A DNA stretch of 64,000 nucleotides from Bacillales bacterium UBA4691 (lineage in GTDB: Bacteria; Bacillota_I; Bacilli_A; RFN20; CAG-826), in assembly GCA_002404865.1 (NCBI GenBank), contig DHKP01000009.1, forward strand, positions 64,806 to 128,805, in the 5' to 3' direction. Of this stretch, positions 44,900 to 63,762 are shown piece by piece (position 1 is the first letter of the stretch; each line of letters starts with the position of its first letter). The notes below the pieces were generated by a model that was given only the letters and a program-made list of their open reading frames with translations, was not told the DNA's origin and did no database searches. The translations under genes and the position numbers were made by a program.

Positions 44900-45319
44900 A
44901 TGGCGGCTTTGTTATAGTCATTTTAACTCATTTCCTAGTATTTTTCGACGATTAATTTGCTTTAAATGTCGCTTTTACTTTACTTCCAAAAGCGAAGGAC
45001 TATTCACCTTATCTTTAGTTCTATTTTAGATATAGCTAATAAGGTGGAAACCGCTCGCCTTTTTGTTTATGAATCAACGATGATATAAATTAGTCGCTTT
45101 CATTTATCGTCGGAAAGTAGCGTGACCCGCCTTCGCTTTTTAGATAGGCGTACAAAATTGTACTTATGCTCTCTTTTATTTAGCTAGACCAGATGCTCTA
45201 ATTCGAATATAGAAAGCACATTAGAACATGGGATTCTATTCTTTTTAAAATCTCTATTCAAACGTAGAAAACTATCTAAAAAATAGGTAGAACGATATTA
45301 TTAAAAAGAAAGGTGGTTT

Positions 45320-46142
45320 ATGAATAAAATTACGATTAAGAACATTGAAATCAGTATCACAGGGATTGGAGATGATGATTTCATTAGTTTGACCGATATG
45401 GTTAGAGCAAAAAATCCAAAAGAGCCAAAGGACGTTGTGAAAAAACTGGATGAGATTAAGGTCTTCTCTTGAATTTCTTGGTATTTGGGAAACTTTGAAC
45501 AACCCAAACTTTAACCGGGTCGAATTCGACCCCCTATTAGCGGAGTTTGGTAAAAACTCGTTTACTATGTCTCCCACTAGGTGAATTAGTGCATTTAATG
45601 CGATTGGGATTAGAACAAAACCAACTAAAAATGGTGGCACCTTTGCTCATCGCGATATTGCTTTCGAGTTTGCTTCATGGATTTCTGCTGAAGTAAAACT
45701 ATATATCATCAAAGAATTCCAAAGATTAAAAATTCAGGAGCCAGAACAACTTGAATGGCATGGCAAAAGACTACTGACAAAACTGAATTATTTGATTCAA
45801 ACGGATACTACGAAAGAATTTTTGGTGCCTGTTGAATTATCGAACGAACAAAAAAGTTATATTTACGCGAATGAAGCAGATTTATTGAACGTTGCCTTAT
45901 TTGGAAAAACCGCCAGGCAGTGGAGAGATGAAAATATAGACAAAAAAGGAAATGTTAGAGATTACGCCAATACGATAGAGTTAGCAATTTTGAGTAATCT
46001 CGAATACCTAAATTCGATGCTGATATCTCAAAAAGTGTCTCAGAAAGAAAGACTCATACTTCTTAATAAAGAAGCGAATAGAGAAAAAGAATTATTCAAC
46101 AAGAACAGTATTAAACCTATACATAGAATAGAAAAGAAGTAA
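45320..46142 (+). pseudogene. KilA-N domain protein pseudogene (one frameshift and one in-frame TGA)
   Basis: The three reading-frame pieces join into MNKITIKNIEISITG..DDFISLTDM..KNWMRLRSSLEFLGIWETLNNPNFNRVEFD..FTMSPTR*ISAFNAIGI..GGTFAHRDIAFEFASWISAEVKLYIIKEFQRLK... There is a frameshift in the A6 run at 45440-45445 and a TGA at 45582-45584, where homologs have Trp. Confidence 0.8.
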
Positions 46143-46180
46143 CGACTCGAAATCGATGGGGTTAAACCAATCAATTTGAT

Positions 46181-47101
46181 ATGGCAAGAAAGGAAAAAAA
46201 TATGGCGTATAAAGTATTGGGGGATAGAATCAAAAAGATTCGTTTGGATAACAAGATGTCTCAGCAAGAATTCGCAGAGGCCTTGGGCTACACCCATAAA
46301 TCAATGATCAACAAGATTGAAAGCGGATTAACCGACATGTCTTTTGATAAAATCATTAAGTTAATTCTAGAATTTAAAGTAAACGCGAATGAATTCTTAG
46401 ATTTATCTGATCAAGAAACTGAAGATTTGATGTCGATGGCGGATAAGGCGGATAAGCCAGACTGGAGAAGGATCCATCCCCTCAAATCAAAAGACGAAAG
46501 CGTGGTTTATGTTAAGCCGACATTAATCAGCTGCCCAAACATCAAAGTAGGGGAATATACATATTTTGATGGTCAAAACTTTCAAAATCATGTCACCCAT
46601 CATTATGACTTTATTGGTGACAAGTTAATTATCGGCAAGTTCTGCCAAATCGGTAGAGGGGTTGAGTTCATTATGAATGGCGCTAATCATCAAATGAATA
46701 GCGCCTCCACCTATCCCTTTTATATATTCAAAGGCTGGAAACAAGACCCACCTTTAAAGGTAGATTTACCGTATAAAGGGGATACGGTTATTGGGAATGA
46801 TGTATGGATTGGCCAAAACGTCACATTCTTACCCGGAGTCCATGTGGGCGATGGATGCATTATTGGCGCTAATGCTGTGGTGGCTTCTGACATCTCTCCC
46901 TATTCAGTGGTGGTAGGCAATCCCGCTAAAGCAATTAGAAAACGCTTTGATGATGAAATGATTACACTTTTAGAAAAACTAGAGTGGTGGAACAAAACGC
47001 CAAATCAAATTCAAAAGATACTCCCTATCCTTTCTAGCGGTGACATTGAATATGCTAGGGATGAAATCAAACGCATCATAGGCGGAGACGAGACTTTGTA
47101 A
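46181..47101 (+). CDS. XRE-family HTH domain fused to a Vat-type xenobiotic (streptogramin A-like) O-acetyltransferase
   Basis: Residues 9-70 are an HTH_3 domain (LGDRIKKIRLDNKMSQQEFAEALGYTHKSMINKIESG). Residues from about 95 to 306 align by eye with VatD: VGEYTYFDG, IGKFCQIGRGVEFIMNGANHQMNSASTYPF, KGDTVIGNDVWIGQNV, VVVGNPAKAIRKRFD and LEWWN. Confidence 0.8.
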   Translation: MARKEKNMAYKVLGDRIKKIRLDNKMSQQEFAEALGYTHKSMINKIESGLTDMSFDKIIKLILEFKVNANEFLDLSDQETEDLMSMADKADKPDWRRIHPLKSKDESVVYVKPTLISCPNIKVGEYTYFDGQNFQNHVTHHYDFIGDKLIIGKFCQIGRGVEFIMNGANHQMNSASTYPFYIFKGWKQDPPLKVDLPYKGDTVIGNDVWIGQNVTFLPGVHVGDGCIIGANAVVASDISPYSVVVGNPAKAIRKRFDDEMITLLEKLEWWNKTPNQIQKILPILSSGDIEYARDEIKRIIGGDETL

Positions 47102-50129: not shown

Positions 50130-50157
50130 AAGCCGCGTAAATCGCGGCTTTCTTTTT
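50130..50157 (+). terminator. Intrinsic terminator after rpmE
   Basis: AAGCCGCG (50130-50137) pairs with CGCGGCTT (50143-50150), followed by TTTCTTTTT. Confidence 0.8.
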
Positions 50158-50167
50158 GGAGCATCTT

Positions 50168-51775
50168 ATGAGCAAGAAATTTTACATCACGACCCCTATT
50201 TATTACCCAAGCGCTCGCCCTCATTTAGGACACGCTTATTGCACAACCATTTGCGATATCATCGCTAGGGGAAAAAGAATGCGTGGCTTTGACACGTATT
50301 TCCTTACTGGTCTAGATGAACACGGCGAAAAGATTCAAAAGAACGCCGAGGCAGCAGGAATCACGCCACAACAATTTGTGGATAATGTGGCGAAGACTTT
50401 CACAAATCTTTGGTCGCTTCTTCACATCTCAAATGACGACTTTATCAGAACGACTCAGCCACGCCACTATTTGACGGTCCAAAAGATTTTCCAAAAGATG
50501 CAAGAAGATAATGACGTTTATCTTTCTAGCTATAGTGGATGGTACTGCGTTCACGAAGAGACCTACTGGACGGAAACGCAAGTCGGGGAGAATCATATTT
50601 GCCCTGAATGCGGGCGTCCAGTTGAGAAAAAAGAAGAGCCAGCTTATTTCTTTAAATGTTCAAAATATGTTGATGACTTACTTTCTTTTTATGATTCCAA
50701 CCCGAAATTCATCACGCCCGAAGGCCGCAAAGCGGAAATGGTGAATAACTTCATTAAGCCTGGCTTAACGGACTTATGCGTGTCTCGCACGACCTTCACT
50801 TGGGGAATCCCGGTACTTGGGAGCGAGAATCATGTTGTTTATGTTTGGCTTGACGCTTTAACTAACTACATCACCGCGTTAGGCTATCTTCAAAGTGATG
50901 ATAGCAAGTTCCAAAAATTCTGGAACGATCCTGAAACAGAGATTGTTCACGTGATTGGTGCCGATATCACTCGTTTCCACACGATTTATTGGCCGATGTT
51001 CCTTAAAGCCCTTCATTTGCGTGAACCAAATCGAGTGTTTGTGCATGGTCTTCTTATGATGAAGGACGGCAAAATGAGCAAGAGCAAAGGGAATGTTGTC
51101 TATGTTGAACCTCTTGTCGAACGATATGGCGTTGATGCGGTGCGTTATTTCTTGGTGAGAAACGTCATCTTCGGAATGGATGGGAAATTCACTCCAGAAG
51201 ATTTCGTGGAGGCCATTAATGTTGATTTGGCCAATAACCTTGGGAATCTTCTCAATCGTACGGTTTCCATGATTGAGAAATATTACGATGGAGTCGTTCC
51301 AAATTATGAAGGAGATGTCACGGATTTAGATAAGGACCTTCATGAAGCGGCTTTAAAGACGATCGCCACGTATGAAATATTGTCCGACGACCTTAAAGTC
51401 ACTGAAGCCTATGCCTCGGTGATGGAGCTTGTGAGCAAAGCGAATAAATACATTCAAGATAGCGCTCCCTGGGCTTTAGCGAAAGATCCATCGAAAAAGA
51501 AAGAACTCGCTAGCTGCATGAATCATCTTGCCAATGTTATTTTCTTAGCGGGTATGCTTTTGTCCCCGATCCTTGTGACGAAATCCGCGAAAATCTTTGA
51601 TCAATTGGGAGTTCCTTCCGAGTTACGCAACTACGAATCCGCGAAGAAATTCGGCATTATCTCAGGCACGACAGTGGAGAAAGGGGAACAATTATTCCCT
51701 CGTCTAAACGAAGCGGAAGAAATCGAATACATTAAAGGCTTGATGGCCGCTCCAAAAGAAAAGGCCGCTGCCTAA
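50168..51775 (+). CDS. metG: Methionyl-tRNA synthetase (short form, no C-terminal EMAP-like domain)
   Basis: It has HLGHAY (HIGH), KMSKS and a zinc knuckle (CPECGRP). The ATG at 50168 with GGAG 6 nt upstream is preferred to the TTG at 50156. Confidence 0.93.
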   Translation: MSKKFYITTPIYYPSARPHLGHAYCTTICDIIARGKRMRGFDTYFLTGLDEHGEKIQKNAEAAGITPQQFVDNVAKTFTNLWSLLHISNDDFIRTTQPRHYLTVQKIFQKMQEDNDVYLSSYSGWYCVHEETYWTETQVGENHICPECGRPVEKKEEPAYFFKCSKYVDDLLSFYDSNPKFITPEGRKAEMVNNFIKPGLTDLCVSRTTFTWGIPVLGSENHVVYVWLDALTNYITALGYLQSDDSKFQKFWNDPETEIVHVIGADITRFHTIYWPMFLKALHLREPNRVFVHGLLMMKDGKMSKSKGNVVYVEPLVERYGVDAVRYFLVRNVIFGMDGKFTPEDFVEAINVDLANNLGNLLNRTVSMIEKYYDGVVPNYEGDVTDLDKDLHEAALKTIATYEILSDDLKVTEAYASVMELVSKANKYIQDSAPWALAKDPSKKKELASCMNHLANVIFLAGMLLSPILVTKSAKIFDQLGVPSELRNYESAKKFGIISGTTVEKGEQLFPRLNEAEEIEYIKGLMAAPKEKAAA

Positions 51776-53148
51776 TGAAAAAGAACTCATTCCAAAAGAA
51801 AATCCTTCATGGGGAATGCGTTGACCTTTCTTATGAAGCCAAAGGCGTTTTTAAAAGTGGGGGAGACGTTGTTTTCGTTAATGACATGTTCCCAGGAGAA
51901 ATAGGGGACATCGAAGTCGATTATCGACGAAACGGAGAGTTTTTTGGTCATGTTAAAAAGCTAACCAAGAAATCGCCGGATAGAGAAGATGTCCGCTGCC
52001 CTTATTTTTATCAGTGCGGCGGCTGCCAATTTCAAGATTACGCATACCCCTCTCAGCTTATTTTCAAACAAAACAAGGTAAAAGAGCAATTTCGGAAAAT
52101 TGCTCATATGGACGTAAGCCCATTATCAACCATCGGAATGGATAACCCGGTTGCGTATCGCAATAAAGTCCAACCTCTTTTAGGCCAAGATGATCGCGGC
52201 AATATTTATTCTGGTTTTTATAAAGCGGGCACTCATGTCATCGTTCCGATTGATAAATGTCTCATTGAGGATGAGCGCGCTACCAAGGTGCTTATGAGCG
52301 CTCGTAAACTCATGAAAAGCTTTCATATCCAACCATACGATGAAGATAGCGGATATGGCATTATGCGCCACATTCTTGTTAAGACATCTCATTATTACCC
52401 AGAGGTTATGGTTGTGCTAATAACAGCGGTGGATTCTTTCGTAGGCCGAAATAATTTCATTCATGCTTTAATTAAAGAATGCCCTAGTATCACCACAGTT
52501 GTCCAAAACATCAATTCCCGCCATACATCTGTTGTATTAGGTGAAAAGACAAGGATTTTGCACGGAAAAGGCTATATTCAAGACACATTATGCGGAATTC
52601 ATTTCAGAATATCTGCAAAATCCTTTTATCAAACCAACCCCATCATGACGGAAATCCTCTACAAAACCGCGATGGATTTCGCGAAATTGACAAAAAACGA
52701 CGTGGTATTTGATGCGTATTCCGGCATCGGTACGATCGGGTTAATCGCCGCAAAAGACGTAAAAAAAGTAATTTCTGTTGAGATTGTCCCCGAAGCCGTA
52801 AAAGACGCGAAAGAAAACGCCAAATATAATCACATCGATAATTTCTATGCCTACGCGGACGACGCTTCTTCTTTTATTTATAAGATGGTCCGCAATCATG
52901 ACCACATTGACGTCCTTTTCATGGATCCACCTAGGAAAGGAAGCGATGAGAAATTCCTTAAAGCGGTTCTTACCATCAAACCATCTCGCATTGTGTATAT
53001 TTCTTGCGATCCATCTTCTTTGGCTAGAGACGCTTTGTATTTGTCCAAAGAATACGAAATTCAAAAGATTCAACCTGTTGACATGTTCCCCCAAACATTC
53101 CATGTTGAGACTGTGGTGTTGCTTAGTCGAAAAAACGGCGAAAAATAG
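51775..53148 (+). CDS. rlmD: 23S rRNA (uracil-5-)-methyltransferase, RlmD/RumA family (TRAM + 4Fe-4S + SAM MTase)
   Basis: 457-aa ORF with the Cys cluster CPYFYQCGGCQFQ, DAYSGIGTIG, DPPRKG and the catalytic region YISCDPSSLARD. Confidence 0.88.
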   Translation: MKKNSFQKKILHGECVDLSYEAKGVFKSGGDVVFVNDMFPGEIGDIEVDYRRNGEFFGHVKKLTKKSPDREDVRCPYFYQCGGCQFQDYAYPSQLIFKQNKVKEQFRKIAHMDVSPLSTIGMDNPVAYRNKVQPLLGQDDRGNIYSGFYKAGTHVIVPIDKCLIEDERATKVLMSARKLMKSFHIQPYDEDSGYGIMRHILVKTSHYYPEVMVVLITAVDSFVGRNNFIHALIKECPSITTVVQNINSRHTSVVLGEKTRILHGKGYIQDTLCGIHFRISAKSFYQTNPIMTEILYKTAMDFAKLTKNDVVFDAYSGIGTIGLIAAKDVKKVISVEIVPEAVKDAKENAKYNHIDNFYAYADDASSFIYKMVRNHDHIDVLFMDPPRKGSDEKFLKAVLTIKPSRIVYISCDPSSLARDALYLSKEYEIQKIQPVDMFPQTFHVETVVLLSRKNGEK

Positions 53149-53170
53149 CCAAAAATCGCAAAAATTTGAT

Positions 53171-53212
53171 GGGTTTCATTCTTCTCGAAAATGAGTGAAA
53201 TCCATTTTTTTT
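53171..53212 (+). terminator. Intrinsic terminator after rlmD
   Basis: GGGTTTCATTC (53171-53181) pairs with GAGTGAAATCC (53193-53203) as 11 bp including 2 G-U pairs, followed by T8 (53205-53212). Confidence 0.7.
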
Positions 53213-53631
53213 GTCGAGAAAACCGCCCAAAACCCGGTAAAGCGGTAAAAATAAGGCCTTTACTCGCATGGGGAAATGGGTCGACGCTCAAAATGAACAC
53301 TCATCCTACGTCGTATCGACATGGGAATAGGTGGCCTATACCTGTACACGATGGAAGGAATAGGTCAAAAATCCCGTATTTATCGGCTTTTTAGGAAAAT
53401 CACGATTTCTCGATTTTTTGCGTTTTCGGAGTACGTTGCAACCACACACCCAACCTAGTGACCAGAATTTCGACCGAAAAACGGCTAAAAACGGGGGTAT
53501 AGTTTGATGAAAATGCCAAAAACCGAAAAAGTCATTGCCTTCTCTTTGAAAATAGACCAAGAAAAATTGGGATCAGGTAAAAATAAGAGGACATTTTTGA
53601 TGCGATTCTTATCCTTTTGTTTCATTGAAAG

Positions 53632-53661
53632 TTGACTCAAAAAGTGCTATATTTATATCAT
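53632..53661 (+). promoter_or_regulatory. Candidate sigma-70-type promoter of the island operon
   Basis: TTGACT (53632-53637) and TATCAT (53656-53661) are separated by an 18-nt spacer. AGGAGA at 53675-53680 and the ATG at 53688 follow. Confidence 0.45.
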
Positions 53662-53687
53662 AAGCGACGGAAATAGGAGAGCATTGT

Positions 53688-53879
53688 ATGACTTACTCTG
53701 AGGCAATCAAGAAATTGCGTAATAGATTGATACTTACACAAACTGAATTTGGCGAATTGCTCGGCGTTTCTTTTGCCACGGTCAATCGTTGGGAAGCAGG
53801 TAGGTTTAAACCAACGACAAAATTGAAAAGAAAGCTTGCACCTTATTTTGAAAAGTATGGAATAGAGGTTGATGAATAA
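53688..53879 (+). CDS. XRE-family HTH protein (controller-like first gene of the operon)
   Basis: 63-aa ORF with the HTH_3 pattern LRNRLILTQTEFGELLGVSFATVNRWEAGRFKP. Its stop overlaps the next start (TAATG). Confidence 0.8.
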   Translation: MTYSEAIKKLRNRLILTQTEFGELLGVSFATVNRWEAGRFKPTTKLKRKLAPYFEKYGIEVDE

Positions 53880-54871
53880 TGACCGAAAACGATATTAATA
53901 TTAAGAGCCTTTATTCATTTTGTCCTGAACTTATTGATATTCTTTTGCACGACAACACAACGAAAAAGAACATCATTTGGGCTACCGATCACTATAAGAA
54001 CAAAGGACTTGGCTATTCCGTTACCGACGAGATAAAGCCTTGCCATTTGACAGGGAAAGTAAGAGCTATTAGGCCAAGAATCGAAAAGAGCAAGGCCGAG
54101 CAAACAAAGAGAAGCAAAGACAATGCAGAGGTTTTCACCCCGTCTTGGATTGTTAACAAGCAAAATAATTTGGTTGATAACGCATGGTTTGGCAAAGAAG
54201 ACGTATTTAATATCGAAAATCCTGATAATTCTTGGATGCCAACCGAGAAAGTTATCTTCGATGGAGGAGACAAGTCCTGGATTGATTATGTCAATGACAT
54301 TCGTTTGGAAGTTTGCTGTGGCGAAGCGCCATACCTTGCATCGAGATATGACACAGTCTCGGGTGAGAAAATCGAAAATAAAAATAGAATAGGCCTCCTT
54401 GATAGAAAATTCAGGGTTATAAATGAGAACGCGACAACTGACGATGAGTGGCTTGATTATGCCATAAGGGCAATCAAGTCTATTTATGGCTATGAATTCC
54501 AGGGTGATAACCTTTTAATCGCACGCGAGAATATCTTATTGGATTTCGTTGACTACTATTTTGAAAGATTTAAGAAATTTCCTGATAAGGATTTGCTAAT
54601 CAGCGTTGCAACAATCATAAGCTGGAATCTTTGGCAAATGGACGGCCTTAAATACGTCGTCCCATTTTCTTGTCATAACGAAGTTGAAAAAGTAGTTCAG
54701 CTTAGTTTATTTGATGAGCCTGAAGAACCCAAGTTAGATATTTGCCCTGGCTGCAAAGCGAATGACCCCAAGAAGCATAATGGCAAGAGATGCTACATCA
54801 TGGATTGGGAAAAGAATAAGAAGATCAAATTTGTGTCATTGATGTGGAGGAATGGCGAATATGTTGGCTGA
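53879..54871 (+). CDS. Methyltransferase-like protein lacking the catalytic (D/N/S)PP(Y/F/W) motif
   Basis: 330-aa ORF with AEVFTPSWIV (motif X of gamma-class N6A MTases) and a degenerate motif-I-like LEVCCGEAPYL. No NPPY-type tetrapeptide occurs anywhere. The C-terminus is Cys-rich (SCHNE...CPGC...KRC). Confidence 0.55.
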   Translation: MTENDINIKSLYSFCPELIDILLHDNTTKKNIIWATDHYKNKGLGYSVTDEIKPCHLTGKVRAIRPRIEKSKAEQTKRSKDNAEVFTPSWIVNKQNNLVDNAWFGKEDVFNIENPDNSWMPTEKVIFDGGDKSWIDYVNDIRLEVCCGEAPYLASRYDTVSGEKIENKNRIGLLDRKFRVINENATTDDEWLDYAIRAIKSIYGYEFQGDNLLIARENILLDFVDYYFERFKKFPDKDLLISVATIISWNLWQMDGLKYVVPFSCHNEVEKVVQLSLFDEPEEPKLDICPGCKANDPKKHNGKRCYIMDWEKNKKIKFVSLMWRNGEYVG

Positions 54872-56576
54872 GAATGAAAAAAACGACGCTTTAGAAGCGG
54901 AAGGGAAATATAAAACCCAAGTTGAATCTGCAACCGACTACATTGAGAACTTCGATATTCTCGAAACAATCACCAATGTTGGAAACGATGAAGTGTTCAC
55001 TCCAAGAAAGACTTGCGACATGATTTTAGATTCTCTTCCGGAAGAGGTCTGGCACAATCCGGATTACAAATGGTTGAATCCGGCCACAAAAAACGGAATT
55101 TTCGAGAGAGAAATTGCAATAAGGTTGGATAATGGCCTGAAAGACATCATTCCAGATATCGAGCAAAGAAGAAAACATATTCTTCAAAACATGATCTATT
55201 CTATTGGCCAAACTAGATTTACTGCTAACGTTGCTAGAAGAACGGTTTATTACTGTTCCCAAGCCAATAGAAAATGTGACGGAATCAAAGCTAAAGATGG
55301 TCACTACGTCAATGGTTATGCGATTGGCAACGGAAGCTGGTTCGACAATGAAGAAGGCAACATCAAAACCCCAAATATCAACCATACGTTTGTAGATGAA
55401 AAAGGAAGACTGATGCCTAATTCTTGCTCCGATGAAGAAAAGAAAAAATATAGATGCAAATATTGTGGAATCAACGGCGGATCTGCTTATAACGACGCCC
55501 ATCAGCGTGAGACATATGCTTATGAATTCATCCATTTTAGCGGGGACGAATTATTAAAGCATTTGCAGGATAGATTCTTTGGAGGTAATAGGAAAATGAA
55601 ATTCGACATCATAATTGGCAATCCGCCTTATCAGCTGAGCACTAATCAAGGTGGCACTCAAGCGACACCGATTTATCAAAATTTTGTGAAGCAGGCGGTT
55701 GGCTTAAATCCGAAATATATAAGCATGATCATCCCTTCTAAATGGTTCGCTGGTGGAATGTCAACGCTAGATGAGTTAAGAGCGTATATGATGTCGTGCA
55801 ATAAAATTAAATCGATGACCGATTTCTCGAATGCAAAAGAATGTTTTCCTACTAATAGCGTTGGAGGCGGAGTTTGTTATTTTCTATGGGACCGTGATTA
55901 TGATGGGCCATGCACTTTCACCAACGTGATTAATGGAAAAGCTCAAACGGAAATTAGAGAATTAAACGAGTTCCCCGTTTTAGTTAGATTAAATAAGGCG
56001 GTTTCAATCCTTAAAAAGATAAAGACACTGAACGAAGAAAACATGGTTGATTCTGGAAGCCCATTAATGCCTTTTGGACTTTCATCTGATGCCCGAGGAG
56101 AAAAAAGTCAAAGTAAAGAGAATTCAATTAAATTATATGCAAGCAATGGAATTACATTTATTTCAGAACATCAAATCAAAAAAGGTCAAGATTTGCTTAA
56201 CAAATATAAAGTTTTGGTTGGGATTCTAGGAGCTGAGCACGCTTTGGAACCTGACAAGGATGGTAAGTTTAGAATAATTACATCCTCTTTGAAAGTTATA
56301 GGGCCTCAAGAAGCTTGCACACACTCGTATTTTACTATTGGAAAATTCGATAATTTAGGGGAAGCCCAAAATTTATGCAATTATCTAAAAACAAAATTTG
56401 CTCGTTTCTTAATTTTACTAGCTATGACATCAACACATCTTTCTAGGAACGTTTTGCTCTTTTTGCCTAAACAAAATTTTGATTCAGTTTGGACTGATCA
56501 AAAACTTTATAAAAAATATGGTTTTAGTGTGGATGAAATCAATCTTATTGAGGAAACAATGAAGGAGATGAAGTAA
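54852..56576 (+). CDS. Eco57I-type (gamma-class) N6-adenine DNA methyltransferase
   Basis: 574-aa ORF that overlaps the previous gene by 20 nt. It has DEVFTP (motif X), WLNPATKNGIF (divergent motif I) and IIIGNPPYQ (NPPY encoded at 55620-55631). A Cys cluster includes RCKYCG. The C-terminal WTDQKLYKKYGFSVDEINLIEE tail is as I recall for this MTase family. Confidence 0.8.
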   Translation: MANMLAENEKNDALEAEGKYKTQVESATDYIENFDILETITNVGNDEVFTPRKTCDMILDSLPEEVWHNPDYKWLNPATKNGIFEREIAIRLDNGLKDIIPDIEQRRKHILQNMIYSIGQTRFTANVARRTVYYCSQANRKCDGIKAKDGHYVNGYAIGNGSWFDNEEGNIKTPNINHTFVDEKGRLMPNSCSDEEKKKYRCKYCGINGGSAYNDAHQRETYAYEFIHFSGDELLKHLQDRFFGGNRKMKFDIIIGNPPYQLSTNQGGTQATPIYQNFVKQAVGLNPKYISMIIPSKWFAGGMSTLDELRAYMMSCNKIKSMTDFSNAKECFPTNSVGGGVCYFLWDRDYDGPCTFTNVINGKAQTEIRELNEFPVLVRLNKAVSILKKIKTLNEENMVDSGSPLMPFGLSSDARGEKSQSKENSIKLYASNGITFISEHQIKKGQDLLNKYKVLVGILGAEHALEPDKDGKFRIITSSLKVIGPQEACTHSYFTIGKFDNLGEAQNLCNYLKTKFARFLILLAMTSTHLSRNVLLFLPKQNFDSVWTDQKLYKKYGFSVDEINLIEETMKEMK

Positions 56577-56577
56577 C

Positions 56578-59500
56578 ATGGAAGAAATTTTAGTTACAAA
56601 ATCTCCCGATATTAATCAAACGGATACAATTCAGTATCACGAAAACAAAACAATCTTTAGTTTGGATGACAAAAACAATACCGACGGTTCACTGATTCTC
56701 ATTTATATGTATTTGTTGCCTAGATTCCAAACGCATGGAATCAAGGTAGGCATGACCAAATGCAGAATCGGAGAGACTTTTTGGCATGCAATTAAATCTA
56801 GGATACACGATCAGCAACACGAATTAGCGCTTACCGATGATCAATATCAAAAATACGGATTGGAAAGAGAGATCGTCTATTGGGGCATTTGCCTCGATGC
56901 AAAAAACGATTCCTTTAAAGATTATTCCGTCCATAACGAAATCAAAAAGACAAACGCTGGGATTGTGGAGAAGGAGCAGGAGTGGTTCACGAATGTTCCG
57001 ACCGACGAGCTCATCGGCATCTTCAATTCATTGAGACACACGGATGAAAACAAAGAAATATATACTCCAAGGAAAGAGCAGCAGGAATGCATCGACGCCA
57101 TGAGCGAGTATTTTGCCGAGAACCCAAACGGCCGATTCCTTTTGAACTGCAAAATGAGATTCGGCAAATCGTTCACGACCTACAAGTACTGCGAAGACCA
57201 TAATCTAGAGAGAATATTGATCCTTACCTTCGTACCAGCTGTTGAATCTTCTTGGCGTGAAGACTTAAGACATATTAAGAAAAGCTACAGGTATTTCACC
57301 GACGATAACCTAAGAAGAAGCGACTTCATGCTGGGTTTTATTCAAGATCCTTACGTCTTGTTCCTTTCGCTTCAAAATTACTTGGGCAAAGAAAAGAACG
57401 CAGATGTCAAAGCCAAGATTCAGCAATTGCAGAACATCGATTGGGACTTGGTCATCCTCGACGAATACCATTTCGGCGCATGGAACCAAAGAACACAAGG
57501 AACCCTGAAAGTCAAAGAGGAAAAGAGCGAAGACCTCGATAGCAACTACCAAGAGCAATTGAAGAAGACTGGCGACATCATCCAGAAATTCAATATCAAG
57601 ACTAGACAGACCATTTGCTTGTCCGGAACCCCGTTTAAGGCGTTGGCCAGGGGCGAGTTCACGGACAAATCCTCTTTCACGTACTCCTTTTTCGATGAGC
57701 AGAGAAACAAATATCCTAATAGCGACAAAGGCGATTTCTCTGTCGTGAATCCAAGTTACGCCGCCTTTCCAGACATTAAGATATTCGGATACAACATGTC
57801 CAGGCTTTTCGGCAATCTGACGGCTTCCGTTTTCTCAGAAGATAGATTGCTCACAAAAAAATATTTCTCTTTGAACAAATTCTTCGAAACAAGGCAGGAG
57901 AACAACCCGAATGAGCCATGCACGTTCATTTACGAGGATGAGATCAAGAAATGGCTTGAGATCATAAAGGGACGTTCCACTTTTGGAGATAAGTTTCCTT
58001 ATTCCAACCCACAGATGCTTCAAAACAATGTTCATACATTGTGGCTCATGCCGACAGTCAAATCGTGCAAGGCGATGGAAAAGCTTTTGAAGTCGGATGA
58101 ATACTTTTCCAGATATCAGATTATCAATCTATCTCAGGATGGCGTGGGTGCCGGAAACGACGCTTACGAATATTTGATGAACGGCATCACCGAATCCGAG
58201 AACACCAATAAGCTCGGGTCGATTGCGATAACGGTCAATAAGCTGACCATTGGTGTTACGGTTAAGAAATGGTCCAGCGTGTTCGTGCTGAAGGATTTGG
58301 CCAGCCCTGAGCAGTATTTTCAGGCAATTTTCAGAATACAGACACCATATGTTGTGAATGGGGTAATTGAGAAGAAAGATGGATACGTCTACGATTTTAA
58401 TATCGATAGGGCCAGTGCCTTGCTTTTGAAGTACGCCGAGCAATCGGAGAATGAGCAGACGACAAAACTTCAGATTGCGAAGCTGATTGTTAAATACATG
58501 CCGATTTTTGTGAATGGCGACATGTCTGACCCGATCTCAGAACAAGTGTTCTACGAGTTGGCGCAATATGGCGATTCCAGTGGGATTCCTTTGTCGAGGA
58601 AAATCACAGACACTACCAAAACCACTAGAATGCTCGACGAAGAGACGATGGCTGAGATGCTCAACGACAAAGAGGTCAGTGACATCATCAAGAGGGTTTT
58701 CGCGCATGCAAAATTCGGGAAAACGAAGACAAGGACTGTCCCGGCCAAGCCTGAAGATGGCTTTGATACGAAAATAGCGCAGGAAGGCAGGAACAAAGGC
58801 TACGAGCTTGGTCAGCAAGACTATCAAAATTATGTTGACTATGACGATAATCAAGTCCAAACGGAATTTGAAAAAGCCCTTTTCGATTACATCAAAGAAT
58901 ACTGCCCGAAGGATTATGATCAGGCAAAAGCCGCTTGGTATGCCAATGGGTTCAAAAAAGGTTACGAAGCTGGCGTCAACGCCCCCATCAAAAAAGAGCA
59001 ATGTGGCCACGACGACGGTGTTAAGTTCGTTGATGTGATAAAGAAAAGATTTAGCAAGGACATCAAATATACCAGCAACACTAGAGTGATGATTGATAAT
59101 TTTGTAAAAGCCTATTTGAACGACACAAAGAATATCCCTGTTAAATATAGAGGCATGCTTTACAGAAGATGGTATTGCGATTCTTTTAGAAGAGCCGTGA
59201 AAACCAATCTAACACCTGTTGTCGACCCAAAAAACGGCGAGACGATTGAAGATGCCGATAATGTATTGAAGCATTTACTCGCAAGATTGTTTGAATTCTT
59301 ATATATCAGCGTATACCGCGAGACCACCTTTATGGAAATCTTCAATAATGCCGATCCTAATGTTTTCTTAGAAGCGGTTGGCATCACTAAAAAAGATTTC
59401 GAAATACTCAACAAATACAAAGTCTTCCAAGAGGATGTTTTAAATAACTACATACATGATTTCTTCGTGAATGAATCTTTAGGAAGTAAGTTGGACTTAA

Positions 59501-59877
59501 AGGATGAGGAAGTCCAAAAACAATATAGAAATAGTTTTGATTGGTTTGGATTCGGACTCGAAAGTGACGATGCCACGCAAGAAGAAATATTGGAAAACAA
59601 AGATGTCAACTCTATGAAAAATGATTTTATAGAAAAAACGGTAATAAATGTTGATTCTGAAAATCCTGAAGAAGAACCACGAGAGGATGAAGATGCCAAC
59701 CAATCGGAACCCACTTTGCTCGACAAAATCAAAGACCTTCTTTCTACAAAACAAATGAAGTCTTCGAAGATTGCCTTAGAATTGGGTGTTTCTAAAAAGG
59801 AAATCAACCAAGTTTTATACGCTCATAGTGATATTTTTGTTAAAGATTTATTTTTCAATTGGAAGTTAAAAAGATAA
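56578..59877 (+). CDS. GIY-YIG/T5orf172-like nuclease + SF2 (ResIII/SNF2-like) helicase + C-terminal Z-alpha-like winged helix protein
   Basis: 1099-aa ORF starting 1 nt after the MTase stop. Residues 38-150 read LILIYMY..GIKVGMT..KSRI..VHNEI..EQEWF (T5orf172 pattern). Helicase motifs are RFGKSFT (194-200), LDEYH (294-298), LSGTP (348-352) and QAIFRIQTP. An acidic stretch follows. The final 56 aa read ..SSKIALELGVSKKEINQVLY...NWKL. Confidence 0.75.
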   Translation: MEEILVTKSPDINQTDTIQYHENKTIFSLDDKNNTDGSLILIYMYLLPRFQTHGIKVGMTKCRIGETFWHAIKSRIHDQQHELALTDDQYQKYGLEREIVYWGICLDAKNDSFKDYSVHNEIKKTNAGIVEKEQEWFTNVPTDELIGIFNSLRHTDENKEIYTPRKEQQECIDAMSEYFAENPNGRFLLNCKMRFGKSFTTYKYCEDHNLERILILTFVPAVESSWREDLRHIKKSYRYFTDDNLRRSDFMLGFIQDPYVLFLSLQNYLGKEKNADVKAKIQQLQNIDWDLVILDEYHFGAWNQRTQGTLKVKEEKSEDLDSNYQEQLKKTGDIIQKFNIKTRQTICLSGTPFKALARGEFTDKSSFTYSFFDEQRNKYPNSDKGDFSVVNPSYAAFPDIKIFGYNMSRLFGNLTASVFSEDRLLTKKYFSLNKFFETRQENNPNEPCTFIYEDEIKKWLEIIKGRSTFGDKFPYSNPQMLQNNVHTLWLMPTVKSCKAMEKLLKSDEYFSRYQIINLSQDGVGAGNDAYEYLMNGITESENTNKLGSIAITVNKLTIGVTVKKWSSVFVLKDLASPEQYFQAIFRIQTPYVVNGVIEKKDGYVYDFNIDRASALLLKYAEQSENEQTTKLQIAKLIVKYMPIFVNGDMSDPISEQVFYELAQYGDSSGIPLSRKITDTTKTTRMLDEETMAEMLNDKEVSDIIKRVFAHAKFGKTKTRTVPAKPEDGFDTKIAQEGRNKGYELGQQDYQNYVDYDDNQVQTEFEKALFDYIKEYCPKDYDQAKAAWYANGFKKGYEAGVNAPIKKEQCGHDDGVKFVDVIKKRFSKDIKYTSNTRVMIDNFVKAYLNDTKNIPVKYRGMLYRRWYCDSFRRAVKTNLTPVVDPKNGETIEDADNVLKHLLARLFEFLYISVYRETTFMEIFNNADPNVFLEAVGITKKDFEILNKYKVFQEDVLNNYIHDFFVNESLGSKLDLKDEEVQKQYRNSFDWFGFGLESDDATQEEILENKDVNSMKNDFIEKTVINVDSENPEEEPREDEDANQSEPTLLDKIKDLLSTKQMKSSKIALELGVSKKEINQVLYAHSDIFVKDLFFNWKLKR

Positions 59878-59885
59878 ATTTTAAT

Positions 59886-60833
59886 ATGGATAAAAAGATT
59901 AGATGCATAAATGAGTTTTATAAAACAAAGATCTATAAAGGACCAAAGTATCTATATAAATATAGACCCTTTGACGAACATACTTTTGATATGCTCGAAA
60001 ATGATTATCTATATCTTTGCAAAGCTAAAAATCTTGACGATCCTACTGAGTGCGCAGCAACCATTGATTTTAATAAATTCTATGATCTAGAAACTAACAA
60101 CGTTAAGAGAGAATGCGTCCAATTTATTATTGAAAAGCTTAGGCCGTATACAAGCGAAGAAAATTATCAAATGATTCTAACTATTATGGGCTCCATGATG
60201 AATAGGAACGGAACCATAAGGCCTAATTATTTGCTCGATTGTCAATCACAACTGCAAGCTCTTTTACCAGAAGACTATGATGTCGCACCATTTATAAACT
60301 GGATTGTAGGCATACCTGAAAAATTGGATTCCCCTGAAATCAAGCCTCAAATTTATACGTTGATCAAAGCAATGTACAACGCGAGGGAGGAGCTTGGAAT
60401 TTGTTCTTTAAGTGCAAATAAAAATGATGAAACAATGTGGAAAGAATACGCTGCTAATGGGATGGGATATTGTGTCGAGTACGATATGACTGATTATGAT
60501 TATCTTAACCTTTTGTTTCCTGTGATATATGTTTCTGAAAACGAGAGAGAAACCGACATAACAACAAAGATTCTTCTATCGTTTATTGAGAATATGATTG
60601 AAGGTTTCTCTCACGGAACTATTGAAGCCGATGTTTCCCAATGTATAACACTCTTTCTTACGAAATACGACAAATGGAAATATCAAAATGAATGGCGATT
60701 GCTTGGAGATGCGGCTTCAAAGCTAAAGGCACCAAAAATCAATGCAATTTATCTTGGAAAGCGAGTATCCAAAACTAATCTCAATGCAATGAATAATTTC
60801 TCTAAAGGTAAATTCAAAATGATTAAAGATTAG
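59886..60833 (+). CDS. DUF2971-like protein
   Basis: It has the signature YLYKYRPFDEHTFDMLENDYLYLCKAKNLDDPTEC (LYKYR.f....l..l....lw.s....fNDP.E pattern). The ATG at 59886, 9 nt after the upstream stop, is preferred to the track start at 59859. Confidence 0.65.
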   Translation: MDKKIRCINEFYKTKIYKGPKYLYKYRPFDEHTFDMLENDYLYLCKAKNLDDPTECAATIDFNKFYDLETNNVKRECVQFIIEKLRPYTSEENYQMILTIMGSMMNRNGTIRPNYLLDCQSQLQALLPEDYDVAPFINWIVGIPEKLDSPEIKPQIYTLIKAMYNAREELGICSLSANKNDETMWKEYAANGMGYCVEYDMTDYDYLNLLFPVIYVSENERETDITTKILLSFIENMIEGFSHGTIEADVSQCITLFLTKYDKWKYQNEWRLLGDAASKLKAPKINAIYLGKRVSKTNLNAMNNFSKGKFKMIKD

Positions 60834-60836
60834 GAG

Positions 60837-62870
60837 GTGAAACAATTGGATGACATTATAGAAGAAATAAAAAAGAGCTGTCCATTTAAGACGGAAGCAG
60901 AACTATTTGACTATTTAAAAACAACGTTAACAGGATACGATTTAATCGATTTATTAGAAAAGCTGAGTTGCCTCAGGTTTTTCTCACTTACCAGTTTTTT
61001 GACGTATTCTGAAACTGAAAGAAACGGGGTAAGGAAAATATTTGATGAAGGCTTTTCTTTCCTCGTTCCATTTTTGTTTTGCTTTAAAATAGAAGAAGGC
61101 GATGAAAAAATTAGATATGACAAAATCAAATCGATTTGTCAAAATATTTCCTATTTTTTATTTGTGACACGGATGAACAAACGTGGGAATGACAAAATTG
61201 ATTATATCCAAAATAATTTAACGGATTTGTTCGCTGATTTTAAAGCTATTCCTGTGGGTTGTATATTAGAGTGTGAAGACGATTTAATGATTCAAAAATA
61301 CGATGTCACATCTTCGGACTTGCTCAAAGAATTACTAATAGTTTTTCCAAAAAGAATTTTCAGCCCTAAAACAAAAATTCAAGCTTTCGAGCCAAGTTAT
61401 TTTATCGATAATTTTTCTTCAATAATAGATACAAGTGGTTTCATTATTAGCAAAGATTGCAAGTCATATAATTTATGTAACGATTTATCCGCTGGGCTAG
61501 GAACTTTAGGAATAGGAAGCTTTAATGTTTCCAATCCTTTATCTACTATTAATTTATCTCGCAAGCTTTTTATAAAAAAGAACGGTATATTGTATAACTT
61601 GAATGATGATTTGATATGCGGAAGATTAAATAGATCGGTTGAATCATTGTTTTCTTCACAGAAAGAAAAAGACGAGTGGAGAATTAAATATAAGGAAAAA
61701 ACCGAATCTATAGTCAAGGAAGTTTTTGAAAAATATTTAATTGGTGGGGTTTATTACGAAAACAATTTTTATAAAGGAAAAAATGGGAATTTTTGCGAAA
61801 ACGATGGCATGTTTGTTTACCATGATTTTGCGATTTGCATAGAAATAAAAGGGAATAAATTTAATCCTGATCCAGTAAGCGAAAACTCTGAAAAAGTAGA
61901 GGATTCTTATAAAAATGTTTTAAGTAAAGCTAAGGCACAAGTTATAAGAATTAGAGAAGAGATTGAGCAACAACAAAACTTTACAATCTATGATTCCAAA
62001 AGGAAGCCCATATTTCATTTCGATAACCTTAATACAAAAAACATCATAGGGATTTGCATCTATTTTGAGGATATAGGGACTTATCTTGCCGATTTTGCCA
62101 AAGAGCCGGAGCGGATAATTCATATTTCGTTTTATGACCTATTGATGGTATTTGAATACCTGGAAAACCCGCTATTAATTATCAAATATTTATTTGAGCG
62201 CAGCGGACCTATTAAAAATGAGAAAATATATCTAAACGATGAAATGATGTTTTTAAGCCTCTTTAGGGATTGCATACATTTGAACTCATATATTAATGAT
62301 CAAAACATTTATAAACAGCAAAATATAGGCAATATATTTTTTCCAAACGACGAATTCGGAATGGAAATTGAACTGTATTTTATGGGTGGTAGATCAAAAC
62401 CCCCAATTATGATTAATGAGTTTGTAAATCGAATCGTTAGCACAGACGATTACTCGGCGATTGATGACAACTTATTTACTGGATTGTTCACTATTCTTTG
62501 TGAGTCAAAAGAAAAATGGGAAGCCATAGAGATAAAATTTAAGGAAAAGAATAATTCAAAATCAAGGATGCCGATTGTTTTGTCCTATTTTAATAAAACT
62601 GGTAGTGCTTTTGCTTTGATGTTTATTTCGCGAGGGCACAATCCTTATCAAAAAAGACAAAGTATAGCATTTGCAAAAAGATATTTTGAATATCGTGAAC
62701 AGGTGGGCACTATTTACCTTATTTCGGTAGGTAAAGATTATAGCAATTACTTAAAGATAAATAAACAGGACGAATTTTTAAAAGACATTGATGATAAAAG
62801 CCTGCTATCTGATATCCGCTTTAGTATCGTCAGTCACACTCAATTTTTTGATGATGAGATAGTGAATTAA
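60837..62870 (+). CDS. Large uncharacterised protein with a central PD-(D/E)xK-like motif
   Basis: 677-aa ORF. The GTG at 60837 abuts GGAGG with no spacer, so the TTG at 60846 may be the real start. The candidate nuclease core is ENDGMFVYHDFAICIEIKGNK (about nt 61796-61852). The gene is very AT-rich and no other family was recognised. Confidence 0.55.
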   Translation: MKQLDDIIEEIKKSCPFKTEAELFDYLKTTLTGYDLIDLLEKLSCLRFFSLTSFLTYSETERNGVRKIFDEGFSFLVPFLFCFKIEEGDEKIRYDKIKSICQNISYFLFVTRMNKRGNDKIDYIQNNLTDLFADFKAIPVGCILECEDDLMIQKYDVTSSDLLKELLIVFPKRIFSPKTKIQAFEPSYFIDNFSSIIDTSGFIISKDCKSYNLCNDLSAGLGTLGIGSFNVSNPLSTINLSRKLFIKKNGILYNLNDDLICGRLNRSVESLFSSQKEKDEWRIKYKEKTESIVKEVFEKYLIGGVYYENNFYKGKNGNFCENDGMFVYHDFAICIEIKGNKFNPDPVSENSEKVEDSYKNVLSKAKAQVIRIREEIEQQQNFTIYDSKRKPIFHFDNLNTKNIIGICIYFEDIGTYLADFAKEPERIIHISFYDLLMVFEYLENPLLIIKYLFERSGPIKNEKIYLNDEMMFLSLFRDCIHLNSYINDQNIYKQQNIGNIFFPNDEFGMEIELYFMGGRSKPPIMINEFVNRIVSTDDYSAIDDNLFTGLFTILCESKEKWEAIEIKFKEKNNSKSRMPIVLSYFNKTGSAFALMFISRGHNPYQKRQSIAFAKRYFEYREQVGTIYLISVGKDYSNYLKINKQDEFLKDIDDKSLLSDIRFSIVSHTQFFDDEIVN

Positions 62871-63040
62871 AGCAAATTGATAACGCTGATTAAATCACAA
62901 TAGTTGCATTGCAACAATTTACAAATTTTCCTTAAGGTTGCTAGACTTACATCGTCGTTGCTTTTCATCAAATCATAATCTTCAGAGCTTATACCAGATT
63001 TGGATATGAGCTCTTTTTTCGTCATGTCTTTTTCTTTCAT
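62867..63040 (-). CDS. Small XRE-family HTH protein
   Basis: This gene is below the track cutoff. Hand translation gives MKEKDMTKKELISKSGISSEDYDLMKSNDDVSLATLRKICKLLQCNYCDLISVINLL (57 aa). Its start overlaps the upstream gene's stop (ATGA at 63037-63040). It converges on the 677-aa gene with a 4-nt overlap of their stops. Confidence 0.75.
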   Translation of the reverse strand: MKEKDMTKKELISKSGISSEDYDLMKSNDDVSLATLRKICKLLQCNYCDLISVINLL

Positions 63041-63561
63041 GAGAGACCATAAACCATCATAAGATGTATATCCAAAATCCTCGTTATTTTGCTTAATATC
63101 ATCGCAAAAGGCCTTTTTTTCCTTCTGATTATGCGTTGGATGTGGTCGTTTAAAAGCGCGGTGACGTCTTTGGTGATGTAGCCTTTTCTAACAGTCAAAC
63201 CAATGGCTCTAAAGTCTTCTATCATGCACATTTTCGCTTTGCCGTCTAGCTCGCAATACTCAATGGCGTCCTCTAAGCCTTCCTGACAGATGAGTGAAGG
63301 GCTGAGGGACAAAGCATCGCGATAGGAGATGTCTTTGCCGCTTTTCGGGTTCATGAGCTTTCTTGCGTACTCCCCTTTTTGGATAGCTTCGACAATTCCG
63401 GCTTTTTCGTTCTCGAAATCCTTGATGAACCATGTCCATATCGTCTCATAGACCATGGCTGCGTTGATCCTTTCCCCAGGTGAGGCAATCCTCAGAATCG
63501 CATTGTAGAGATTCTTCTCCAAGATTTCGAAAATGGATCCGATGGTGGCGCTTGCTTTCAT
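63037..63561 (-). CDS. Hypothetical protein (GC-richer, foreign-looking), translationally coupled to the small HTH
   Basis: The ATG at 63561 (MKASATIG) is preceded by AAGGGGGAA and is preferred to the track start at 63624. No family was recognised. Confidence 0.5.
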   Translation of the reverse strand: MKASATIGSIFEILEKNLYNAILRIASPGERINAAMVYETIWTWFIKDFENEKAGIVEAIQKGEYARKLMNPKSGKDISYRDALSLSPSLICQEGLEDAIEYCELDGKAKMCMIEDFRAIGLTVRKGYITKDVTALLNDHIQRIIRRKKRPFAMILSKITRILDIHLMMVYGLS

Positions 63562-63762
63562 AATTCCGTTCCCCCTTTGAAGCACGGCCGAAATCAGTCC
63601 CGTCTGATCTCGTTTCAAAAACAAGCTCTAATGCAATGACATTGCGGAACGATAGTGATCCGTGATGGATGTTTCCTCAATTTTAACATGAATGGCACGA
63701 TTTCCGAATTGCAAGGAGTCTAAAGCTTTGGAAACAGCCCATCGAAAAGGGAGGACACGCTT

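Follow-up and report, generated by a model that had tools for sequence, protein, structure and literature searches.

A six-gene locus of Bacillales bacterium UBA4691 as a probable composite defense island: a split, restriction-modification-like gene triad followed by genes for a DUF2971 protein and a predicted NERD-like nuclease

Six co-directional genes downstream of rlmD

The subject of this analysis is a cassette of six genes, here called g1 to g6, that lies in a 64,000-nucleotide (nt) stretch of contig DHKP01000009.1 from Bacillales bacterium UBA4691. The whole stretch is referred to below as the window, and positions are those of the window unless another locus is named. An earlier, sequence-only reading of the same DNA had described six open reading frames (ORFs) packed on one strand and had proposed that they form a single undescribed anti-phage system. 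The ORF listing confirms the six frames, their coordinates, and their common plus strand (Table 1). Based on the comparison of these genes with their relatives elsewhere, we consider it probable that the cassette is instead a composite defense island made of two independently mobile modules, g1 to g4, which resemble a restriction-modification (RM) system, and g5-g6.

When the junctions were re-read, those of the first module were found to be as previously described: g1 and g2 overlap by 1 nt in a TAATG, g2 and g3 overlap by 20 nt, and g3 and g4 are separated by 1 nt. The g4/g5 gap is 8 nt with the g5 ATG at 59886, and the exact 315-amino-acid (aa) product of this start is on record. The g5/g6 gap is 3 nt if g6 begins at the GTG at 60837 and 12 nt if it begins at the TTG at 60846; the TTG has an AGGAGG 8 nt upstream, and a recorded 674-aa call of g6 (P0121, 100% identical) starts there. 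Upstream of the cassette are metG (50156 to 51775) and rlmD (51775 to 53148), the latter with a terminator-like hairpin at ~53170 to 53213. The cassette had been placed directly after this terminator; it is indeed downstream of rlmD, but g1 starts ~475 nt past the hairpin. Its description as AT-rich likewise holds for one part of it, since the GC (guanine plus cytosine) fraction is 0.34 in g5 and 0.31 in g6 but 0.37 to 0.41 in g1 to g4, compared with 0.405 for the whole window. The drop in GC is confined to g5-g6, with the break at the g4/g5 boundary. Both of the sigma-70-like matches that make up the candidate operon promoter score 10/12 in a consensus scan, which is a pattern match only, and promoter-like sites in the region as a whole show no excess over shuffles.

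Table 1. Coordinates of the cassette genes, protein domains, and candidate promoter (HTH, helix-turn-helix; wHTH, winged HTH; SF2, superfamily 2)
Feature	Window position	Strand	Residues	Description
Candidate operon promoter	53625-53661	+		Two overlapping sigma-70-like matches, ~30-60 nt upstream of g1
g1	53688-53879	+		63 aa; XRE-family HTH protein
g2	53879-54871	+		330 aa; methyltransferase-fold protein without NPPY
g3	54852-56576	+		574 aa; Eco57I-type gamma-class N6-adenine methyltransferase
g3 target-recognition domain	55872-56573	+	~341-574	C-terminal half of g3
g4	56578-59877	+		1099 aa; T5orf172/GIY-YIG domain, SF2 motor, wHTH
g4 T5orf172/GIY-YIG domain	56692-57036	+	~39-153	Putative nuclease domain
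g4 SF2 ATPase	57070-58377	+	~165-600	Double-stranded DNA translocase type; GKS196, DEYH295, SGTP349, Q582/R586
g4 helical region		+	~600-1000	
g4 wHTH	59710-59874	+	~1045-1099	Follows acidic linker
g5	59886-60833	+		315 aa; DUF2971 (alternative start 59859, 324 aa)
g6	60846-62870	+		674 aa; predicted NERD-like PD-(D/E)xK protein (GTG start 60837, 677 aa)

Profile searches, homolog matches, and structure models, which are described gene by gene below, bear out the domain content that had been read from the sequence for each of the six proteins, and they support the earlier view of a defense locus with an RM-like logic of methyltransferase plus helicase-nuclease. The reported absence of BREX, DISARM, Druantia, Zorya, Hachiman, and Gabija signatures also agrees with our results: in a PADLOC scan of the six proteins, there was no match to PglZ, BrxC, DrmB, DruE, ZorA, HamA, GajA, or mad2 to mad8. 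We rejected MADS as a candidate, as the scan gave just a weak mad1 match (E=0.0074) on g1. The BREX-related "BR" systems (DUF499 ATPase, DUF1156 methyltransferase, and Snf2 helicase) were also rejected; the Pfam scan detected none of their components, and their methyltransferase is of a different type.

Genes g2, g3, and g4 form a conserved triad

We compared 38 g4-family loci, taking one genome for each species with an alignment to g4; most of these loci are from metagenome-assembled genomes of gut and rumen Bacilli, Mollicutes, Erysipelotrichaceae, and Clostridia. (Loci are designated by L and a number.) In every one of these loci where upstream DNA is present, g3 is immediately upstream of g4. 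In 30/30 loci, the gene immediately before g3 belongs to the g2 family, with a long form (330 aa) in 11 loci and a short form (~215 aa) in 19. The same three-gene order is found on plasmids of Variovorax, Mycolicibacterium, Rhizobium, and Legionella, with stops and starts that overlap as judged from the record-table coordinates, and 81 plasmid records match g4 by tblastn. Homologs of the triad occur in Bacillota, Actinomycetota, and three classes of Proteobacteria. RefSeq names the first gene "hypothetical," "type III restriction endonuclease subunit M," or "N-6 DNA methylase," the second [quoted passage not shown] and the third "GIY-YIG nuclease family protein" or "DEAD/DEAH box helicase." The small first gene of the Variovorax triad is a g2 relative (hhalign, 96.9%, E=1.9e-10).

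In two cases, the second and third genes of the triad are a single gene. Plasmid pRS5 of Pediococcus pentosaceus encodes one 1417-aa protein with the domain order T5orf172-ResIII-Eco57I, preceded by a g2 relative (hhalign, 99.8%, E=1.6e-29), and L059 encodes a 1345-aa fusion preceded by a protein that is 64% identical to g2. The fusion of g4 to g3 is strong evidence that these two proteins act together, and the constancy of g2 even where the enzyme is fused speaks for g2 as a genuine third component.

The genes after g4 vary and include PDC-S57 (T5orf172-RAMA), Lamassu LmuA/LmuB, a Mokosh-like helicase, and a GmrSD-type enzyme. The T5orf172 plus RAMA/DUF4357 gene (PDC-S57) is 1 to 15 nt after the g4 homologs of L008 (13328 to 13999), L015 (13305 to 13997), and L020/L021 (13795 to 14490), and these g4 homologs already have a T5orf172-like domain.

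The triad is widespread and has been catalogued only in pieces by REBASE-derived models. g2 matches the PADLOC type II methyltransferase model MTase_II (PDLC03390) end to end (E=1.7e-114), while the REase_MTase_IIG model (PDLC03626, 1359 positions) is covered from 159 to 600 by g4 and from 999 to 1359 by g3. Genes g2 to g4 are not a standard type III or type IIG system.

g5 and g6 occur independently of the triad

g5 matches DUF2971 (PF11185) with 28.6 bits compared with a Pfam cut-off of 22, and residues 27 to 317 match PADLOC PDC-S31 (E=8.8e-32). Aristaios, a lactococcal DUF2971 protein of 316 aa with a predicted ADP-ribosyltransferase fold, has been validated as a single-gene antiphage system of the abortive-infection type (PMC11381338). 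Like Aristaios and PDC-S31, g5 carries DUF2971 in a stand-alone protein of ~300 aa; unlike them, it is often, although not always, paired with g6. The similarity of g5 to a lactococcal plasmid DUF2971 gene is weak (32% identity across 40% of g5). g5 is directly after g4 in 1/38 loci (L028, which has no g6) and also in the close relatives L049 and L062, and other DUF2971 genes are found near the triads of L005 and L018 and on many plasmids. We take g5 to be a separate, putative single-gene-type defense module of the PDC-S31/Aristaios kind.

g6 has no match in Pfam, NCBIfam, PADLOC, or PDB sequences. Its close relatives form 16 clusters, and a profile search of 1.84 billion representatives returned 596 at E≤1e-3, with 25 at E≤1e-30. 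The remote relatives are 750 to 820 aa long and have in common the central region, for which there is no PADLOC model, together with a sub-threshold NERD match (PF08378) and a C-terminal SEC-C motif. One of them, on the Lactococcus plasmid pUCCL637D (L060, 5164 to 8524), is annotated "NERD domain-containing protein," and an IS30 insertion apparently separates it from its SEC-C tail. No phage record with a g6 relative was found. The residues D323...E336-x-K338 of g6 are invariant in 16 sequences, and the AlphaFold (AF2) model of g6 is confident (predicted local distance difference test [pLDDT] score, 84.8; predicted template-modeling [pTM] score, 0.86). Foldseek comparison of this model with the PDB gave no match at E<1e-3 (all E≥1.2e-3); the weak matches that were named are VC1899, Upx, R2 RLE (R2 endonuclease), HamA, Can2, McrC, and Cas4, most of which are PD-(D/E)xK nucleases by our reading of the entries. 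Based on these residues, the model, and the remote relatives, g6 is predicted to be a NERD-like PD-(D/E)xK nuclease of novel architecture.

The genomic contexts of g6 and its relatives are diverse. g6 is found after the triad and g5 in the window, L049, and L062, and in L063 it is after g5, with an AIPR/MzaE-like gene beside the pair and no triad. In L056 and L069, it follows a DUF2971 protein that is 57% identical to g5, behind genes for a SMEK_N protein and a Schlafen-type helicase. Two type I operons that are unrelated to each other end, behind hsdR, in a co-directional g6 relative (L042 to L044, with a 4-nt overlap, and L048, with a 78-nt gap), and g6 relatives also follow pglZ-brxL (BREX) in L057 and L058 and the fused triad enzyme in L059. 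In L046, L067, and others, the g6 relative is by a phase-variable type I locus, behind a 319-aa protein without a family match, and in L039, L045, and L064, it is alone in defense islands. g6 is thus repeatedly the terminal gene of methylation-based defense operons, but it follows g4 in 0/38 triad loci. Based on the contexts outside the triad and this absence after g4, we conclude that g6 is no component of the triad.

The 319-aa protein (5921 to 6880 in L046; also in L047, L065, L066, L067, and L070) precedes one g6 subfamily, is 92 to 100% identical between contigs, and occupies the slot that is held by DUF2971 in the window. We rejected the idea that DUF2971 is beside every g6, as neither this protein nor the 344-aa neighbor of g6 in L039 matches the DUF2971 profile or any family.

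These contexts bear directly on the proposal that all six genes are one integrated system, in which the methylase-helicase core would require g5 and g6 as its effectors or sensors. In favor of a single system, the packing is tight, all six genes point the same way, and none of the possible internal terminators is convincing; L049 and L062 also have the identical six-gene order, and a g6 relative ends the fused-triad operon of L059. However, among the 38 species-level loci, g5 after g4 and g6 after g4 are found once and never, respectively, and the slot after g4 is elsewhere filled by unrelated defense genes. The two modules also come apart: L028 has g1 to g5 without g6, and L063 has g5-g6 (85 to 87% identical) without g1 to g4. 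L049 and L062 are close kin of the window (83 to 92% identity in five of the six genes and 59 to 63% in g3), so their gene order may be inherited, and the GC break falls at the g4/g5 boundary. Across genomes, g5-g6 show no conserved linkage to g2 to g4. We therefore regard a single six-gene system, as envisaged in the sequence-only reading, as very improbable; tight packing of defense genes is no evidence of a single system.

A different possibility is that g6, with or without g5, is a coupled second layer, either a latent nuclease that is freed when the RM or BREX system is blocked (e.g., by a DNA-mimic anti-restriction protein) or a type IV-like enzyme directed at modified phages. The positions of g6 after hsdR in two unrelated type I operons, after brxL, after the fused triad enzyme, and after the triad plus g5 are consistent with such coupling, and an HTH gene 75% identical to g1 heads the L042 operon. 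Auxiliary or back-up nucleases on BREX-type loci have been described as a recurrent theme, which the terminal position of g6 in methylation-based operons fits (PMC12839542). g6 is similar to the auxiliary nucleases of BREX and RM loci (PglW NERD and GmrSD/BrxU) in that it recurs beside BREX, type I RM, and triad operons; it differs from them in being a stand-alone protein of ~675 aa with no significant PDB fold match and no PADLOC, Pfam, or NCBIfam model. In contrast, the relatives in L039, L045, and L064 are alone among unrelated defense genes, RM genes are the commonest neighbors in any defense island, so that adjacency may be chance, and no sensor domain was recognized in the g6 model. Taken together, the link of g6 to methylation-based immunity is suggestive, chance co-location within islands is also possible, and we consider a coupled second layer rather unlikely, although it deserves attention.

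g3 is a gamma-class methyltransferase with an exchangeable specificity domain

The sole Pfam match of g3 is Eco57I (PF07669, E=2e-26). The protein has motif X at residue 47, a putative motif I similar to that of M.TaqI at residue 76, and NPPY at residue 257, and the NPPY is conserved. The target-recognition domain (TRD) makes up the C-terminal half (Table 1). Residues 1 to 240 are 75 to 92% identical to those of relatives (83 to 92% in the closest). Of the seven relatives that were compared, six have just 31 to 43% identity at residues 341 to 574. The g3 of L005 is 75% identical at residues 441 to 574, although the g4 of L005 is only 66% identical. A conserved N-terminal half with a divergent C-terminal half is the pattern of TRD exchange, and these alignments indicate that the TRD of g3 has been exchanged between otherwise close systems. 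TRD exchange is typical of RM systems under selection for new specificities.

g4 combines a putative GIY-YIG-type nuclease with an SF2 motor

The N-terminal T5orf172 domain of g4 was assigned through its homologs. T5orf172 matches at full-length profile coverage, although below threshold, in 6/14 g4 homologs, and it matches above threshold in plasmid homologs from Variovorax (E=1.8e-7) and Corynebacterium (23 bits), whose tblastn alignments start at g4 residues 42 and 57, within the T5orf172 domain. When the g4 N terminus was compared with bona fide T5orf172 profiles, the motifs were in register, but the probability was low (E=0.0046, 7.6%). Because this direct profile comparison scored low, the T5orf172 call rests on the above-threshold homolog matches. 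The GIY-YIG-type residues Y43, Y45, R75, H119, E135, and N139 are invariant in the g4 family.

The motor is matched by ResIII (PF04851) in g4 homologs. The residues of its Walker A, DExH, III, and VI motifs are invariant in the family; the invariant positions include GKS196, DEYH295, SGTP349, Q582, and R586, with K197, D295, and E296 among the catalytic-type residues. The motor and nuclease residues together are invariant among homologs down to 65% identity in a full-length alignment, and the residues of the nuclease domain down to 42%. The better-defined parts of the g4 model are the N-terminal domain (pLDDT, 76 to 87) and the wHTH, which has three helices and two strands (pLDDT, ~83). Foldseek matches include the Snf2 core (E=2e-6), LlaBIII (4xqk, E=4e-6), LlaGI (5ffj, E=5.6e-5), and SauUSI; the TM-scores (template-modeling scores) of the LlaBIII and LlaGI matches are ~0.15 and were obtained with a model of pLDDT 64. 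A phmmer search of the PDB with g4 found no solved relative.

The acidic, disordered linker and the wHTH (59577 to 59877, residues ~1000 to 1099) are absent from about one-third of g4 homologs, which are 992 to 1006 aa long, indicating that this part is an optional appendage of g4.

g2 is an obligatory methyltransferase-fold partner

g2 has no match in Pfam or NCBIfam and no NPPY motif, lacks a TRD, and has a Cys-rich C-terminal segment. The long and short classes of g2 align across the whole methyltransferase core. Both classes have in common the invariant residues FTP of motif X, LExxxG of motif I, and Asn250, which is at the first position of NPPY; Glu206 of motif II is nearly invariant, and a Trp is found 1 to 2 residues past Asn250 in most members of both classes. 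The g2 family profile aligns with HsdM (3ufb) across motifs X and I, and the family comprises at least 7989 clusters at E≤1e-5 without Pfam annotation. g2 is an obligatory partner in the triad and, judging from its sequence, an S-adenosylmethionine (SAM)-binding protein of methyltransferase fold. Its most likely place is in a complex with g3, where it would be a methylase for the second strand or else a pseudo-methylase or SAM-sensing partner. A split methylase, in which g2 would be the SAM-binding half and g3 or the fusion the catalytic half only, was rejected, as g3 and both fusions have their own motif X, presumed TaqI-like motif I, and NPPY.

g1 resembles an RM controller protein

RM controller (C) proteins are small HTH proteins, encoded first in the operon, that bind palindromic C-boxes in their own promoter. 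Of these traits, g1 has the Pfam HTH_3 match (PF01381, E=1.5e-10) and the first position, whereas its PADLOC match to Control_protein is only E=0.0039, of the same weak order as the mad1 match mentioned above. No operator repeat was found near g1. Homologs of g1 are at the head of the triad in about a dozen loci. The HTH gene that is 75% identical to g1 (463 to 654 in L042 to L044 and L068) heads a type I RM operon, hsdM-hsdS-hsdR, that ends in a g6 homolog, which indicates that the same regulator family fronts different RM types. An assignment of g1 as RptR or another specific regulator was rejected after a PDB search that gave generic XRE matches only. g1 is probably a C-protein-like transcriptional controller of the operon, as judged from its fold family and position.

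Proposed function of the two modules and evidence that bears on it

We propose the following function for the composite island. Through the exchangeable TRD at its C terminus, g3 would recognize a specific site, probably an asymmetric one, and would place N6-methyladenine on host DNA. g2 would bind SAM and act with g3 as the constant third subunit. By associating with g3, g4 would be brought to unmethylated sites, a mode of recruitment that we read from the fusions; the SF2 motor of g4 would then move along DNA on ATP hydrolysis, and its N-terminal T5orf172/GIY-YIG domain would cut. This would be the logic of Type ISP and Type III systems in two chains and with another nuclease fold, and its presumed outcome would be an anti-phage effect. 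g1 may repress or time expression in the fashion of a C protein. g5-g6 would have been added separately as a second module, either gene of which is able to occur alone, and g6 would most likely degrade DNA as an auxiliary or back-up effector beside methylation-based systems. Of this picture, the gene order, the domains, the conserved catalytic-type residues, the linkage of g2 to g4, the fusions, the TRD exchange, and the independence of g5 and g6 are observations, and the activities, the role of g2, the control by g1, and the anti-phage effect are inferred.

Several points weigh against this reading. T5orf172 is below threshold on g4 itself, the AlphaFold (AF2) model of g4 is moderate (mean pLDDT, 64; pTM, 0.45), and cleavage of DNA by the putative nuclease domain is something that sequence alone cannot show. 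With an unorthodox motif IV (N-x[1-2]-W), g2 could have full methylase activity, and "pseudo-methylase" would then be wrong. The six-gene order is kept in L049 and L062, which are too close to the window to part shared descent from selection, and this leaves room for co-transcription and coupling of g5-g6 with g1 to g4. In the literature, we found no experimental study of any triad member, and DnmA-YeeB-YeeC of B. subtilis, which among studied clusters is the nearest that has this set of activities, methylates DNA but gave neither restriction nor phage protection (PMC9973331).

The last of these points raises the possibility that g1 to g4 are an epigenetic or relic cluster, with g3 as an orphan methylase and a g4 that is idle or takes some other part in DNA transactions, as has been proposed for DnmA-YeeB-YeeC. 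DnmA-YeeB-YeeC, which is equivalent to g3 and g4 in domains, methylates GACGAG and did not restrict plasmids or three phages; however, deletion of the dnmA or yeeB homolog of Vibrio crassostreae raised phage sensitivity (PMC9973331). The motor and nuclease residues of g4 are invariant over the range of identities given above, the triad is strictly conserved across phyla and is constantly within defense islands, and the swapping of TRDs, as noted, is typical under selection for new specificities. All of this argues against the epigenetic or relic alternative, which we consider improbable. The composite island with an RM-like first module is the reading that we retain.

Comparison with known systems

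By sequence, the HTH gene together with g2, g3, and g4 resembles an ATP-dependent RM system that is Type ISP/III-like but split, with T5orf172 (GIY-YIG) as the nuclease. The likeness to the Type ISP enzymes LlaGI and LlaBIII is in the order of nuclease, SF2 motor, linker, gamma-class methyltransferase, and TRD, which is found literally in pRS5, L059, and model PDLC03626, and, at low TM-scores, in the Foldseek matches of the g4 model to both enzymes. The differences are that Type ISP enzymes are single polypeptides, whereas the enzyme of the window is split into g4 and g3 with the methyltransferase gene first; that their nuclease is of the Mrr-type PD-(D/E)xK fold rather than T5orf172/GIY-YIG; that phmmer detects no sequence similarity of g4 to the LlaBIII or LlaGI chains; and that the constant g2 subunit has no counterpart there.

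Type III RM enzymes cleave DNA in an ATP-dependent manner that needs two inversely oriented unmethylated sites, and they methylate one strand. The triad is like the Type III system EcoP15I Mod/Res in having separate Mod-like and Res-like genes, in the order mod and then res, and a ResIII-type SF2 ATPase. In addition, one of the RefSeq names for a g2 homolog refers to Type III, and a T5orf172-ResIII fusion is among the RM-type families in defense-island surveys. In contrast to g3, which is of the gamma class (Eco57I) with a C-terminal TRD, Mod is of the beta class (PF01555) with an internal TRD. The Res nuclease is a C-terminal PD-(D/E)xK domain, whereas that of g4 is N-terminal and of the GIY-YIG type and the C terminus of g4 is helical with a wHTH. 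The triad also has a third subunit. Type IIG enzymes unite endonuclease and methyltransferase in one chain without an ATP motor, while the part of g4 that matches PDLC03626 is a helicase whose Walker A and DExH motifs are intact; g3 and g4 match this model in part only.

DnmA-YeeB-YeeC shares with the triad an Eco57I/MmeI-related N6-adenine methylase with an asymmetric site, an SF2 helicase, a T5orf172 domain, and a low-GC defense-island setting (PMC9973331). It differs in that its helicase and T5orf172 are separate proteins with C-terminal domains, whereas in g4 the T5orf172 domain is fused at the N terminus; in that its methylase is large and MmeI-like, whereas g3 has no MmeI_Mtase match; and in that there is no equivalent of g2. 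This comparison sets g4 apart from YeeB and YeeC by their descriptions. In the literature, we found no paper that pairs T5orf172 with Eco57I or describes a GIY-YIG variant of Type ISP.

The main questions raised by these results are the role of g2 and the coupling of g6 to its upstream system. It is conceivable, but in our judgment unlikely, that the triad is a distinct, very common class of ATP-dependent RM system with an obligatory g2 and that, in addition, the g6 family is a new kind of back-up nuclease with a mechanistic coupling to methylation-based immunity (type I RM, BREX, and the triad). If this were true, g2 would be a regulatory or second-strand subunit of a translocating nuclease armed with a GIY-YIG domain, g6 would become active once the primary system had been inhibited or evaded, and the operon of the window would be a two-layer defense. 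The triad is abundant, broadly distributed, and poorly annotated, with no Pfam model for g2 and inconsistent RefSeq names. A characterized triad would add a mechanistic class to ATP-dependent restriction, namely, a GIY-YIG domain on a translocase with three subunits, and would improve the annotation of defense systems in gut metagenomes. The g6 family is a concrete test case for the back-up role of nucleases that are appended to RM and BREX operons.

Surroundings of the cassette

A search for mobile-element boundaries around the cassette found no tRNA, Rfam family, or long flanking repeats. The ~475 nt between the rlmD hairpin and g1 (53213 to 53687) are non-coding and A-rich, with repeated CGAAAAA/AAAAACGG words, and have no Rfam match and no tRNA. 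On the other side, directly after g5-g6, there is a 195-aa ORF on the minus strand (63037 to 63624) without a family match. Relatives of this ORF that are 60 to 63% identical are directly after g5-g6 in L049, L062, and L063, the last of which is without g1 to g4, and the ORF may be a marker of the island edge or a further island gene. Elsewhere in the window, the GC fraction at 44000 to 46500 is 0.33 to 0.36, below that of the neighboring genes. In L023, the end of rlmD (3 to 89) adjoins another triad, which consists of a short g2, g3, and a g4 of 1251 aa and is followed by a Mokosh-like gene; the spot next to rlmD is common to L023 and the window, while the cargo differs.

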